From Mobula hypostoma (lineage: Eukaryota), in contig NC_086108.1 in assembly GCF_963921235.1 (NCBI RefSeq), forward strand, positions 15,934,001-15,998,000: a stretch of DNA of 64,000 nt. The letters run 5' to 3'. Made by a program: the position numbers and the translations under genes. Below are positions 31,652-37,434 of this stretch, piece after piece (the stretch's first letter is position 1; the number at the start of each line of letters is the position of its first letter). The notes beneath the pieces were generated by a model, which saw only the letters and a program-made list of their open reading frames with translations, had not been told where the DNA came from and did not search any database.

Positions 31652-31827
31652 CTGCAGATCTGCTGTGAAGAGATCACTTGGTTCAAAAGTTGAATCTGAC
31701 GCTTGTTTCATTTTCTGAAGGATTTCTGAAGCCTCCCAGGTCCCTTGTGATGATAACTTTACAGGTGAATTGTTAGCAAGACACACACTCTTGTCGAAAT
31801 CTGCCAGGAGAACACGGTTTTCAACAT
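31652..31827 (-). CDS. RNASEL: RNase L coding exon 2 (kinase-like DFD motif and activation segment)
   Basis: ttttccacag acceptor; 176 nt translating (D)VENRVLLADFDKSVCLANNSPVKLSSQGTWEASEILQKMKQASDSTFEPSDLFTADLQ; phase 1 in, phase 0 out. The donor CAG|GTCCAC is weak. Confidence 0.88.
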
Positions 31828-33439
31828 CTGTGGAAAATCAAACTGTTTAATTTCTCAATATTTTGACTGGATACATGCAAAAGTGAAATCAGCTTAAACA
31901 CAATGTTTTGCAGATCTAAGAAGTTCACATTAATTATCCAGTAAAATCTATAAATGCATCAATAATGACAAGAGGGAGAGAGAGCTAATGTTTTCAATCA
32001 ATGACTTTTCTTCAGAACTGGAAAATGTTGAAGTTAAAAGAAGTTTTGAAAGAAGGGAAGAGGGAAAAGATCAAAATAACAAGGGTGTGGGTAAAGAATA
32101 AAAGGTAGAAGAGGAACAAGCTGAGGACAAAGACTAGAATTGGAGAGGAACTAAGTATTAAAGTGACGCTCTTGTCATGGAAGCACTTGGTAAGCATACT
32201 CCTTCCAATGCATATTCACTCACACACAAACATTTCCTTGTCATTCTGCTGTCGTTGCGGAGAGTGTACACACTTCAATATCTTCCCTGGTACATTCTCA
32301 TAAGTAACCCACTGTTCTCTCTTCACATTGCTACATACATCAGAATCAGACACTGAAATTTGATTTAATTTCATTCTTTATGTGTACTTAACCATAAGTG
32401 TGTGATTGTGTTGAGTACTAATGGGACCTAAACCAAGACAATGTGCACAGGTTGGCTTTATGGTGCCTTTCCCTCCATACAGAGTGATATATTCCATTCC
32501 TTTAGTATTAGAGAGATGTAAGTCTGTTAATGTCGCTTGCATACTGTATTTATATAGATAATTCTGTTTATTTTGTAATATGATTGTTGAGTGCATCATA
32601 CTTTAATTCATGTGTAGTCTTAAGTTAACTTTGCTGGTAATTAAAGTTGGTATGTCCTGGTGCCCTCAGCAAGAGAAAGAGATCGGGGCTGCCAGGAGGT
32701 CACAGCACAGAGTAATTATTGTGTTTTCTTGTAGATATTGTTTTGTAAATATTGGCATTTTTCTTTCGACTATTTTCACTAAGATTCGTAAGTTTGATGC
32801 ACCTAATAAACAGCCTTGCACCAAAGTGTTAAGTGACTCCACTTTTTTTTCTTTGGTCATATCCCACATCTCTTCAGTAAATGAAGCAGCCCACATTTGC
32901 ATTCAGCAAGACCTAAACAACATTCAGGTGTGGGCTGATAAGTGTTACGTAACATTCACATCAGACAAACAAAGGAGACCCTTCCTTGACATTTAATAGT
33001 TGTCCCTTACTATCAAAATCCTAGAGGTCATCATTAACCAGAAAATCAACATATAAATATCATGTCTCACTTCACTTACCAACACTTTTCATTATCTACA
33101 ATCTAAATCTGACAAAATCACCTTTTGCCATCACCTTGGTGTTTTCTAGACTCCCGTTCATTTAATATTTTCATCATTGATTACAAATCTACCCCTAGAC
33201 TCTCTTCTACCTTCTTAAACTCCTCTATCAGTCTGTAACTTCTAGCCCTGCAACCCTCTGCGATACTTGGTGTTCCACTAATTTCAAACCCCTAACAAAG
33301 GCCCTTTAATAGCACTAAAGTTATAGAGGGATCTTGGAGCCCATGTCCATAATTCACTGAAAGCAGATAAACGGATAAGGTATTTGTCTGGTGACTATAA
33401 TTCATAATTTATTAACTACAACTCCACCTTCAATACTAA

Positions 33440-34440
33440 TTACAAGCAAATGCATCACCAAGCTGGGAGTCAACACATCCCTCGGCAACTGTATCCTTGA
33501 CTTTGTGACAAATAGACCACAAAAGGCAGCAACATGTCTGCCACAATTATTCTAAACATTGTTGTTCCACAAGGATGAGTCTTCAGCTCCCTACTCTACT
33601 CCCTGTACACTCGACTGTGTGGCCAGATTCTGTTCTGACTCTGTCTACAAGTTTGAGGATAATACTACCGTAGTGAGTCACATCTCAAATAATGATGAGT
33701 CAGAATACAGGAAGGACATAGATTACTGACATGGTGTCACAACAACCTTTCCCCTCAATGTCAGCAAAACACAGAGCTGGTCACTGACTTCAGGAAGGGC
33801 TCAGTGCACATAGTTTTCTCTCCATCAATGGTGCTGAGGTAGAGAGAGTTGAGAGCTTAAAGTTCCTAGGGGTGAACATCATCAATAGCCTGGTCTGTAG
33901 ATGCCATGGCCAAGAAAGCTCACCAATGCCTCTGGTTCTTCAGGATGCGAAAGAAATTTGGCACATCCCTGTCAACCTCATCAATTTTTAATCGATGCCA
34001 CCATAGGATCCAGATGCATCACGGTAACAGCTCTGCTTGTGACTGCAGTGATTTATGGACAAAGCTCAGCACATCACAGAAATCACCTTCCTGTCTATGG
34101 ACTCTGTCTATACTTCATGCTGTCTCGATAAAATCTGCCAACAAAGTCAAAGACCCCACCCACCTAAACATTTCTAATCTCCTCTCTCCCTTTGGCAGAA
34201 GATAAAAAGCCTGAAAGCATGGATATCCATTCTCAAGGACTACTTCAACCCTGCTGTTATATAACTATCGAAAAATTCTCTAGTATGATAAGATGAACTC
34301 TTGACCACAATCAATCTTGCACCTTTTTGTATAACTGCCCTGCACTTTCTCTATAGGTGTTACACTTTATTCTGCATTCTGTTATTGCTCTGTTATTCTA
34401 CTTGAATGCATTGTGTATGATTTGATCTGTATGAACAGTG
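33440..34440 (+). mobile_element. Rex1/Babar LINE 3' fragment
   Basis: PQG..LSSLLYSLYT, KFEDNT, LNVSKT, KFLGV, KKAHQCL remnants. Confidence 0.7.
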
Positions 34441-35300
34441 AGCAACTGGCTTACAATTTTGCGCCAACCTTTTAACCTACTCTTAGATCAATCTAACCCT
34501 TCCCTTCTATAAAACCCTCCATTTTTCCATCATCTATGTGTCTATCTGAGTGTCTTAAATATCCCTAATTTATCTGCCTCTACCACCACCGCTGGCAGGG
34601 TGTTCCACTCTCCAAGTAAAGAACTTGCCTCTGACATCCCCCTTTATACCTTCCTCCAGTTCATTTCCATTTCCAAAGGCGTTAAAGAAGGCGTATGGTA
34701 TTCTTGCCTTCATTGACAGGGGAGGTAAATAAGAAGCCATGCTGCAGCTATATAAAACTTCAGTCAGACCACACTTGTGCAGTTTTGATTGCCCCATTAT
34801 AAGGGATGTGGAGACTGGAAACAGTACAGAAGAGGTTCACCAGGATGCTGCTTGGACTAACGGATACCAATTATAAGGAAAGATTGGATAAACTTAGGTT
34901 ATTCTCCCTACAGAACTGGAGGCTGTGGGGAGACCTGATAGACAATTTGAAAACTATGTGAATCATAGATAGGTTAAACAGTCAAAATCTTTTCCCTTAG
35001 GTTAGAAATACCAAATGCCAGAGGATATGTTTTTAAGGTTAGAGGGTGTAGCTGAAAGGTGATATGATGGGCAAGATTTTTATGCAGAGTGGTAGGTGTC
35101 TGCAATAGGTTGCCAGGGCTAGTAGAGGAAGGATGCAGTTTGGTGGAGTTTAAAGGGGTTTTAGATAGACACGTGACTATGAAGGGAATGGGGAGATACA
35201 ATTGAGACACGGATAAAGGACATTTGGTATAAATTGTCATCAAGATCAGCACAGCATCATGGCCAAATAGCTTTCCAGGTGCCCTACTGTACCATGTTCT
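34440..35300. mobile_element. CR1 3' fragments in opposite orientations
   Basis: Minus fragment 34440-34650 and plus fragment 34680-35300 (KKAYGILAFI, VQKRFTRML). Confidence 0.65.
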
Positions 35301-35798
35301 GTTTTAATCTTTTGATCTTCCCCTGATCTGGTTGGCCATCATTGGTGACGTGGCTCATGTTTCCTCAGGTAGCTTTGCATCAACTGTTGTTTCATGATAT
35401 GCATGCACATCTCCTTGGCCATGTTGTTCTATTAAGCTGCTGTGTGAGTGTAGGCTGGTATCCTTGATGTTGTAAATGGTTTACAAACTAACTCCACTGA
35501 ACAGAGACGATTTATAGATCACTATGAACCACAACAAACAAAGCTTGTGACCAAATCTACAGCAATGACAGCCAATAAAAGCAAGTATATTTCTCCAGAA
35601 AAGTGGAGTGGGGGATAGTTGTAGGATACAAGAGATATCCATAAAGTCAGTCCCAGTCATTTAAGGGAACTCTGATAGAACTGACTCATCCACTTCCATT
35701 TTGCCTGGGCCTTGTGTGGTATCACAGTAAAAGAACATTTAATTGGGTAAGCGCAGCGTTGATTCTGATTTAAATATCTAAAAGGTATAACTCGTTAC

Positions 35799-37434
35799 CT
35801 CTGAGGATATTTGTTGGATGCAAATCCCGATGTGCAATCTTGACACTGTGCAAAATCTGAAGACCCTCAATCAACTGCTTCATAATGTCTGGGGCTCCTG
35901 ACTGACATTCTTTAGGCTCCTTCTGCACATATTCTTCTAGATTACACTCACAGAGATTCAGGCACAGGTAGTCACAATAATCATCATATTCAGAAGACAC
36001 CAGTTTAACAAACAGACTGCTTGCTTTGATCTTTGGCTCATTGAGGCATTGGCTTTCCTTTAAGGCTTCTTCGCTGTTCCTCTTGTGGCATTTCACTGCC
36101 ACCTCAGTATCTCTGTTATGGAAACCAAGGTAAACTTCAGTCTTGTTTTCCCTAGTAATCTTATAATCCTCAATCCGGGACAGTTTCAGCTTCCCAATTG
36201 GGGAACAGTCAACTTTCTGCAATTTCTCCAGTTTTCCATGCCAATGTTTACTGCACTTCTTCCAAGTTGAAGAAACTTGTACATTTTGATTAATATTCTC
36301 TGAGCCATACGAATTCAATATTTTTATTATTTCTTTTTTATACCGTCTTCTGGCCAACATTATTGGTGTAGTCCCTGTATTGTCACTGGAGTGCACATCC
36401 ACTCCCTTCTCACACAACTTTTTTGTCAACTCAGTATTTTTGCTGTCCACTGCTGCCAGGAGAGCCGTCCACCCTGATTTGTCTCGTGCATTGATGTCAA
36501 TACTGTAAGTCTCCAGCAGCAGTTTAGCCACCTTTGTGAAACTGTTTGATATTGCAAGAATCAGGGGTGTTTTCCCATCTTGGTCTGGAACATTCACATG
36601 CGATTCATGCTTCAGCAGCATTTCCACCACATCACTATCTAACCTCTTATTTTTCAAAGCGGTGCTCAAAGGTGTTTCTTTATTATTGTCTATGGAGTTT
36701 ACACTGGCCCCATGATTCAACAGGGTTTCCACAATTGTCCGTCTGTTTTCCTTTAAGGCAAAAATTAAAGCTGTTCTGCCAAGGTTGTCTTGCACATTAA
36801 CATCTGCATGCATTTCATCTAACAAGATGTTAACAATATTTTCATGACCTTTCTCTACAGCACTGATGAGTGCTGTCTTTCCACCCCTGCCCACATTTGC
36901 TTTGGTGTCTGGCACTTCCCTGCGCTTGTTCACATCAGCTTTGCAACTAAACAGGAAACGCAAGGCATCCTCTCTGTCATGTTCTGCTGCTTCCATGAAG
37001 GCAGTAAAGCCATTGGCATCTGCATCATTGACATCTGCTCCAAATGATAGAAACACTTCGAGCAAACTCACTTCACTATATATCACAGCAGTAATGAAAG
37101 GCGTTGCTCCATTCTTCCTCCTGAGATGTGGATCTGCGCCATGCTCCAACAATAAGTGAACAACCTTTTCATGATTTGATTGTATGGCGGTATGGAGAGG
37201 TGACCAACCATAATCCTCAGTCCTATAGTTAATGTTAGCTTTGTTCTTCAAGAGCAACTCAACAACCTGCTCATTACCTTTACCTGCAGCTAAAAATAGA
37301 GGGGTTCCTTTGTCATCAGGATTAAAATCAACCGATGCTCCCCTTGCAATTAATTGCTCCACTTCTGAGGGATCTGAAGTTGAAGAATTACAAAGGTCTC
37401 GAAGTTTCTCACCAAGTGCTTCTGGATCTGACAT
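35799..37434 (-). CDS. RNASEL: RNase L coding exon 1 (ankyrin repeats + N-terminal kinase-like domain); ATG at 37434, splice acceptor AG at 37467-37468
   Basis: ORF 35770..37521 contains GWSPLH, LRRKNGATPF, GFTAFMEAA, LLDEMHADVN, GKTPLILA, ARRRY, IGKLK, YLGF, EVAVK and HRDLHPTNIL, all recognisable RNase L motifs. Donor AG|GTAACG after 35799 (phase 1). Confidence 0.95.

Follow-up and report, generated by a model that had tools for sequence, protein, structure and literature searches.

RNase L Gene of Mobula hypostoma

The window analysed here is a stretch of 64,000 nucleotides from the ray Mobula hypostoma (assembly GCF_963921235.1, contig NC_086108.1, positions 15,934,001 to 15,998,000 of the forward strand), and it carries on its minus strand an intact gene for RNase L, the ribonuclease activated by 2',5'-linked oligoadenylates (2-5A). 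Six coding exons with AG/GT ends give an open 813-aa protein that is identical at 813/813 residues to P0203, the RefSeq Mobula hypostoma protein "2-5A-dependent ribonuclease-like", which means that an annotation of the gene already exists. A Pfam scan of P0203 found ankyrin (ANK) repeats, a kinase-like domain and a Ribonuc_2-5A (KEN) domain. The kinase-like domain appears to hold a complete activation segment of the IRE1 type, with the APE Glu and the Arg between alphaH and alphaI. As far as alignments go, they confirm this chondrichthyan segment as a retained ancestral activation segment that was deleted in land vertebrates. The segment is visible to anyone aligning chondrichthyan RefSeq proteins, but it is undescribed in the literature searched (titles and starts of abstracts, with subscription papers and published alignments outside the scope). 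The features of the gene, in coordinates of the window, are the following.

35799..37434, minus strand: coding exon A, residues 1-545, with 10 ankyrin-type repeats, the ANK-kinase linker WxxxSxxW, the N-lobe and the catalytic loop
36136..36162, minus strand: degenerate Gly-rich loop KITRENKTE, no glycine
36091..36102, minus strand: beta3 VAVK (K448)
36052-36066, minus strand: ALKES, with the alphaC Glu E460 at 36055..36057
35809..35832, minus strand: catalytic loop HRDLHPTN, the Lys of HRDxK replaced by His
31652..31827, minus strand: coding exon B, 176 nt, residues 546-604, with beta8, DFD, the activation segment and the start of alphaF
31793..31801, minus strand: DFD (D555-D557) replacing DFG, as in human RNase L
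31769-31792, minus strand: KSVCLANN, directly after DFD
31745..31786, minus strand: activation loop proper, residues 560-573, variable
31712..31744, minus strand: GTWEASEILQK, residues 574-584, P+1/APE-like motif and alphaEF helix (GTWEASE at 31724-31744)
26487..26704, minus strand: coding exon C, alphaF to alphaI
26537-26539, minus strand: R660, in exon C, expected salt-bridge partner of the APE Glu
23080..23212, minus strand: coding exon D, start of the KEN domain
21827..21972, minus strand: coding exon E, RNase motif RNLTQH (R758, N759, H763)
18577..18709, minus strand: last coding exon, with the stop codon, in the model that matches P0203 at 813/813

The motifs that an earlier, sequence-only reading of this stretch had named were all found on the minus strand where it had placed them. 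The N-terminus consists of ankyrin repeats, the ER (endoplasmic reticulum) luminal domain and transmembrane helix of IRE1 being absent from the ray protein, and no hydrophobic span that could act as a membrane anchor was found in it (maximum 19-residue hydropathy 1.67). Compared with human, pig and coelacanth RNase L, the ray has an extra ankyrin repeat of ~34 aa (residues about 241-274, approximately 36613..36714 on the minus strand), as judged from a split alignment (query 246/268, target 216/204) and from the repeat spacing. This region aligns without a long gap over 13 shark and ray proteins.

Splicing of Exon B

Four of eight listed runs, presumed to be RNA and used as contigs, were aligned to 21700-37700, the last coding exon lying outside that stretch. 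Such contigs show that a spliced form exists, while rare forms drop out of them. One X5 contig joins exons A-B-C-D-E unbroken (record positions 1-1617, 1618-1794, 1795-2011, 2012-2144 and 2145-2290), an X2 contig has 394 bases separating exons D and A (218+176), and an X1 contig runs 203 bases past exon A (176+27). Full exon B is present in spliced molecules of two studies, and the segment is not spliced out of these transcripts, an outcome that would have counted against the sequence-only reading. On the exon A side, the contigs cover 35799-37466. Their match ends at 37466, where an AG acceptor stands 33 bases ahead of the ATG; from there the contigs extend 600-1600 bases further, implying that one or more upstream non-coding exons exist beyond 37467.

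These contigs bear on another possible origin of the segment, as an insertion specific to sharks or an artefact of annotation, such as a retained intron or a skipped piece, which merely resembles APE. That exon B has a weak donor, GTCCAC (31651-31644, minus strand), contains in-frame cryptic GT..AG pairs and, taken alone, had no PDB sequence match at E up to 10 fits this possibility. The weak donor is nevertheless used in the contigs, none of the contig joints listed uses the cryptic pairs, and loss of the 176-nt exon by skipping would change the reading frame. Beyond a stop codon, 28 bases downstream of the exon B donor, there is an AG/GTGATT that looks stronger, but the contigs take GTCCAC.

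Length and Origin of the Activation Segment

In HMMER alignments, the DFD Asp and the alphaF Asp stand 47 residues apart in the ray and 17 in the RNase L of pig (4o1o) and human (4oau). The 30 extra residues agree exactly with the ~30 additional codons, relative to human, that the sequence-only reading had estimated. The human counterpart exon is 86 nt long. Among chondrichthyans, the segment takes 46-47 residues in 17/17 proteins, which represent 15 named species (rays, sharks and a chimaera) and a further record; some of the counts given here use 16. The segment is conserved in sharks, rays and the chimaera; a lack of conservation among sharks and rays would have spoken against that reading.

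Nine of the 10 lobe-finned and tetrapod proteins compared, a small sample of cluster representatives, have shorter segments, with 30 residues in one Latimeria protein (Latimeria a), 20 in lungfish, 21 in a caecilian and 22 in axolotl, and among amniotes 20 and 19 in lizards, 18 in a bird, 17 in platypus and 17 in rabbit. The shortening in the lobe-finned line was apparently stepwise, from 30 in the coelacanth to 17-22 elsewhere. In the second Latimeria RNase L (P0179), several degenerate DFD-like units in tandem lengthen the linker from DFD to alphaF, which has no WEAxE. In outgroup proteins whose kinase motifs are intact, the segment takes 40-57 residues where the script could measure it, and since the full segment is found in the outgroup, the shark state is ancestral and the short state derived. 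The IRE1 sequence GT..W.APE aligns with GT-WEASE of the ray across a 2-residue gap, in keeping with the earlier identification of the segment as an ancestral activation segment.

Conservation and Predicted Structure of the Segment

Over 16 chondrichthyan proteins, GTWEASEILQK (574-584) has a mean pairwise identity of 92%, the highest of the regions compared, while alphaF has 84%, the catalytic loop 77%, the whole protein 63% and the loop proper (560-573) 46%, the lowest. W576, E577, S579 and E580 are invariant (16/16), and W576 and E580 align with the Trp and the APE Glu of IRE1. In ordinary kinases, the APE Glu pairs with an Arg that stands before HPFxW. An Arg nine residues before HPFxW (R660 in the ray) was found in 17/17 chondrichthyan proteins and in 0/10 sarcopterygian RNase L proteins; its equivalent occurs in 11/12 fish and 12/13 invertebrate kinase-KEN rows and in 14/18 IRE1-like rows, where the misses had no anchor. 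At the alphaH-alphaI position, human has an Arg and pig does not. A salt bridge between Glu580 and Arg660 probably holds the segment to the C-lobe.

An AlphaFold2 (AF2) model of the kinase-KEN part, made from 132 alignment rows, has a predicted local distance difference test score (pLDDT) of 96 and a predicted template modelling score (pTM) of 0.93, with a pLDDT of 94-98 over the segment and an alphaEF helix at 579-587. It matches RNase L (Z 36.6, root mean square deviation 3.1, 361 residues) and IRE1 (Z 36.3, root mean square deviation 2.5 A, 373 residues) equally. A first model, of full length and with 13 shark rows, was left unused, its pLDDT being under 50 over 529-575.

The same conservation would be expected if the kinase were dead but the segment served as a regulatory surface, phosphorylated by another kinase (at T575, S579 or a loop Ser) or bound at alphaEF by a partner or a second RNase L dimer, thereby tuning RNase output. 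It is consistent with this view that WEASEILQK is more conserved than either alphaF or the catalytic loop, that the polar residues E577, S579, Q583 and K584 hardly vary, seemingly beyond any obvious need of packing, that the HRD Arg is retained in 16/16 proteins, and that exon B shows 0 differences in 177 bases between related species, the other exons showing 38 in 2113 (Poisson P about 0.04, from one pair). The loop itself argues otherwise. The basic residue at DFx+5, a helper in binding a loop phosphate, is missing in 16/16 proteins, and residues 560-573 hold no invariant Ser or Thr (S571 in 11/16, S572 in 9/16). From DFx+3 to W-1, the loop has a mean of 4.2 Ser/Thr, compared with 5.6-5.8 in relatives, and only 2 in one catshark; with an identity as low as that of the loop proper, the Ser/Thr-rich, phospho-regulated loop proposed by the sequence-only reading was not supported. 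Among the features associated with loop phosphorylation in RD kinases, the HRD Arg is present, and the basic DFG+5 residue and a conserved phospho-acceptor in 560-573 are absent. We regard a regulatory surface of this kind as rather unlikely.

State of the Kinase Motifs

Beta3 K448, alphaC E460, H535, R536 and D555 are found in 16/16 chondrichthyan proteins, and D537 and N542 in 15/16. The beta3 Lys and the alphaC Glu also occur in human and pig RNase L, and the HRD Arg also in the caecilian and one coelacanth paralogue. The list of IRE1-like features said to be lacking in human must be shortened accordingly: the segment and HRD remain on it, whereas the VAVK Lys and the alphaC Glu, which human and pig both have, come off.

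Several other motifs are broken. Neither GxGxxG nor GxxG was found in the 17 chondrichthyan proteins, and GxGxxG was found in 0/10 lobe-finned and tetrapod proteins, as against 16/18 IRE1-like rows. The HRDxK Lys is His in 16/16 chondrichthyans, whereas 100/108 outgroup rows have Lys or Arg; none of the 8 tetrapod-side RNase L proteins has Lys. DFD replaces DFG in 16/17 chondrichthyans. DFx+5 is V or M in 16/16 chondrichthyans and R or K in 87/108 outgroup rows. A Ser or Thr at W-3 (G-[ST]-x-x-W) occurs in 0/17 chondrichthyans, compared with 12/12 fish kinase-KEN and 18/18 IRE1-like rows, and DFx-to-W measures 20-21 residues in chondrichthyans and 24-25 in intact-kinase relatives, a loop 3-4 residues shorter, in a comparison that leaves out 3/13 invertebrate rows whose motifs were not parsed. 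As deduced from these alignments, a 3-residue deletion breaks the P+1 spacing of G-[ST]-x-x-W in chondrichthyans. Defects of the Gly loop, the HRDxK Lys and the DFG Gly are common to tetrapod RNase L (the DFG Gly in all but the bird) and would therefore predate the split between sharks and bony vertebrates.

Narcine is the chondrichthyan with DFG; Narcine bancroftii (P0004) nests among rays with DFD. The Narcine DFG is probably a reversion. In the chimaera Callorhinchus (four records: P0016, P0193, P0194 and P0196), the catalytic motif reads HRN, the Mg-binding Asn is His, and the whole segment is kept. The Gly-loop region of Callorhinchus milii is 3 residues shorter. Nucleotide binding in Callorhinchus may differ from that of other RNase L proteins. 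Since this protein has lost the catalytic Asp and Asn yet keeps its segment, the segment is retained where phosphotransfer is hardly possible.

Elasmobranch RNase L might still be a low-activity kinase that phosphorylates itself in trans upon 2-5A-induced dimerisation, as IRE1 does. All 15 elasmobranch rows have K448, E460, H-R-D537, N542 and D555 together, and active kinases without a Gly loop are known (PMC6442604, in part). Five independent defects, in the Gly loop, the HRDxK Lys, the DFG Gly, the DFx+5 basic residue and the G-[ST]-x-x-W spacing, oppose this view, as does the intact segment of the chimaera, and the residual kinase activity suggested in the sequence-only reading is not borne out. 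We consider such autophosphorylation very improbable. Kinase activity or phospho-control in ray RNase L is, on these motifs, unlikely.

The account that we favour, and consider fairly probable, is that of an ordinary 2-5A-activated RNase L with a nucleotide-binding pseudokinase scaffold, in which the retained segment would be a structural part of the C-lobe. The segment is probably a structural leftover of an already inactive kinase and not a working switch. As in mammals, 2-5A would bind the ankyrin domain, the pseudokinase would bind nucleotide, presumably ATP with Mg, and scaffold the dimer, and the KEN domains would cut RNA. The 30 extra residues would have been inherited from an intact kinase-KEN progenitor; the C-terminal half (W576, Glu580 and alphaEF) may have been kept by packing onto the C-lobe, while the N-terminal loop drifts. 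The Gly loop, the HRDxK Lys and the DFG Gly would have been lost before sharks and bony vertebrates separated, and the lobe-finned line would later have deleted the segment and mostly lost the partner Arg too.

Several observations weigh against this account. Human keeps the alphaH-alphaI Arg without the APE Glu, and the co-loss of Glu and Arg is imperfect (1/12). The confident AF2 model leans on an alignment in which 108/132 rows are outgroup kinases. T575 (15/16), S579 (16/16) and the HRD Arg are conserved, a pattern to be expected of a phospho-switch as well; several of the near-invariant residues in alphaEF are polar, and Narcine has DFG. Kinase activity is, moreover, not reliably predictable from sequence (PMC4718504, in part).

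Relatives of Ray RNase L

When 1.84 billion representatives were searched, many soluble kinase-KEN proteins that are as yet uncharacterised ranked above IRE1. These proteins come from ray-finned fish, lungfish, a brachiopod and cnidarians, and the 17 that were scanned have ANK, CARD, PYRIN or ubiquitin-like N-termini. Examples with mostly intact kinase motifs are P0026, P0027, P0028, P0029, P0034, P0053, P0188 and P0041. In a tree of 67 rows, from which the segment columns were left out, RNase L forms one clade of 20 rows (100/100), with chondrichthyans (100/99) and tetrapods (100/99) as groups within it and coelacanth and lungfish poorly placed. A 99/96 branch sets IRE1 apart from RNase L and the soluble kinase-KEN proteins, most of the rows termed IRE1-like being labelled by tree position, motifs and hydrophobic span. 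The sister group of RNase L within the soluble family is weakly supported (28/14), and a grouping of RNase L with IRE1 survives the approximately unbiased (AU) test (p=0.215). A relation to the soluble kinase-KEN proteins of fish and invertebrates, as the nearest intact-kinase relatives in place of IRE1, is therefore favoured, not shown.

The linker WxxxSxxW occurs in 10/12 fish kinase-KEN rows and 0/18 IRE1-like rows, and over shuffles the shark segment reaches a mean z of 3.7 with fish rows, 2.3 with IRE1-like rows and 1.5 with invertebrate rows. An insertion specific to sharks, or a fault of annotation, is difficult to reconcile with these comparisons. The segment equals that of the outgroup (41-54 aa) in position and length, WEAxE is found in 7/12 fish kinase-KEN proteins, and the partner Arg is present, to which come the RNA contigs with full exon B and the frame shift on skipping. 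This alternative is largely refuted, and we regard it as the most improbable of those considered. The fish kinase-KEN predictions P0120, P0163 and P0150 enter an apparent intron directly behind the catalytic loop and again behind DIQ, places that correspond to the two ends of exon B. These protein predictions hint at intron positions common to the fish kinase-KEN genes and ray exon B.

Soluble kinase-KEN proteins such as XP_043924037, XP_029932516, XP_062407694 and XP_072550278 share with the ray WxxxSxxW, TEV[FY]LG, WEAxE, DIQ in alphaF and a segment of 41-47 aa; unlike the ray, they have mostly intact HRDxK, DFG and G-[ST]-x-x-W, and in some the KEN domain is weak or undetected. IRE1 (human ERN1, yeast Ire1) shares the kinase-KEN fold and the complete activation segment, but the IRE1-like rows differ from the ray in GxGxxG, HRDxK, DFG or DMG, an intact G-[ST]-x-x-W and the lack of WxxxSxxW, and the ray sequence reaches an E-value of 1e-17 to IRE1, compared with 1e-48 or better to RNase L. 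The best sequence and fold matches of the ray are the mammalian RNase L proteins (human 4OAU/4OAV, pig 4O1O/4O1P), which have the same ANK-pseudokinase-KEN order, WxxxSxxW, VAVK, alphaC Glu, DFD and RNase motif and likewise no HRDxK Lys. From these the ray differs by the 30 additional residues between DFD and alphaF, with their APE-like motif and alphaEF, by HRD in place of HQD, by the Arg before HPFxW and by the extra ankyrin repeat. Callorhinchus RNase L belongs to the same clade (100/100) and has a 47-residue segment, differing in HRN and the change from Asn to His, and Latimeria RNase L, also of this clade, has a 30-residue segment without WEAxE.

The description of ray RNase L as an intermediate between IRE1 and tetrapod RNase L holds in part. 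The ancestral segment is kept, but the closer intact-kinase relatives look like the soluble kinase-KEN family, as far as the AU test allows. That these relatives are closer, and that an extra ankyrin repeat is peculiar to the shark protein, requires the wording to be amended. RNase L was derived from a pre-existing kinase-RNase protein by Chu et al. (2023), who also mention other ANK-bearing homologues (PMC10400998, in part). No paper on the soluble fish kinase-KEN proteins was found in the literature search of titles and abstract starts. These proteins are candidate immune effectors in fish without RNase L. Ambystoma mexicanum has annotated RNase L-like proteins (P0024, P0177 and P0178), in contrast to the pathway loss inferred for the ancestor of frogs and salamanders (PMC10400998, in part).

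RNase Function and 2-5A Binding

In the ankyrin repeats of the ray protein, W77, F143, E148 and R172 are conserved and T82 differs from the usual Asn; these five positions are candidate 2-5A contact sites. In the KEN domain, R758, N759 and H763 of the Rx4H motif are invariant in 16/16 chondrichthyans, and H763 corresponds to coelacanth H710, the residue mutated in PMC10400998 (in part). In the same source, RNase L of Callorhinchus milii and of Latimeria was tested in yeast, where Callorhinchus RNase L works with OASa; its cDNA is presumed to match the records compared here. Dimerisation and RNA cleavage dependent on 2-5A have been demonstrated, in yeast, for the Callorhinchus orthologue only. 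The main text of PMC10400998, in the part covered, holds no discussion of kinase motifs. In the human structure, the third Asp of DFD contacts a cation, and the inactivity of mammalian RNase L as a kinase has been attributed to an altered activation loop and substrate site (PMC4718504, in part).

Other Elements in the Window

A broken retrovirus-like element lies at 48739-54111 (plus strand), with reverse transcriptase (RVT_1) and an integrase with a murine leukemia virus (MLV)-type C-terminal domain, split over several frames. There are also many remnants of long interspersed nuclear element (LINE)-type retrotransposons with reverse transcriptase or endonuclease frames, among them 14740-16167 (plus strand), 10887-7963 (minus strand) and 42145-45148 (plus strand).

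Implications for the RNase L Family

The activation segment of chondrichthyan RNase L is a real ancestral trait, conserved and expressed, in a gene family that is already known. Mammalian RNase L is a textbook example of a pseudokinase, and the comparison bears on what killed the kinase. The order of decay suggested is that catalytic residues went first, in the jawed-vertebrate ancestor, and that deletion of the segment followed in the lobe-finned line. A series of natural constructs is available, namely the ray with the segment, the chimaera with the segment and without the catalytic Asp, the coelacanth with about half the length, and the fish kinase-KEN proteins with all motifs, and it could be used to ask what ended kinase activity and whether the segment affects RNase activation.

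No new pathway is indicated unless shark and ray RNase L is still controlled via the segment, whether 2-5A triggers a weak autophosphorylation or the invariant TWEASE/alphaEF surface is phosphorylated or bound by a partner. Such control in either form is unlikely. If it were true, these proteins would represent a surviving intermediate stage between an RNase gated by its kinase and the mammalian enzyme, which is gated purely by its ligand, and the fish ANK/CARD/PYRIN-kinase-KEN proteins would be the active-kinase sister group.

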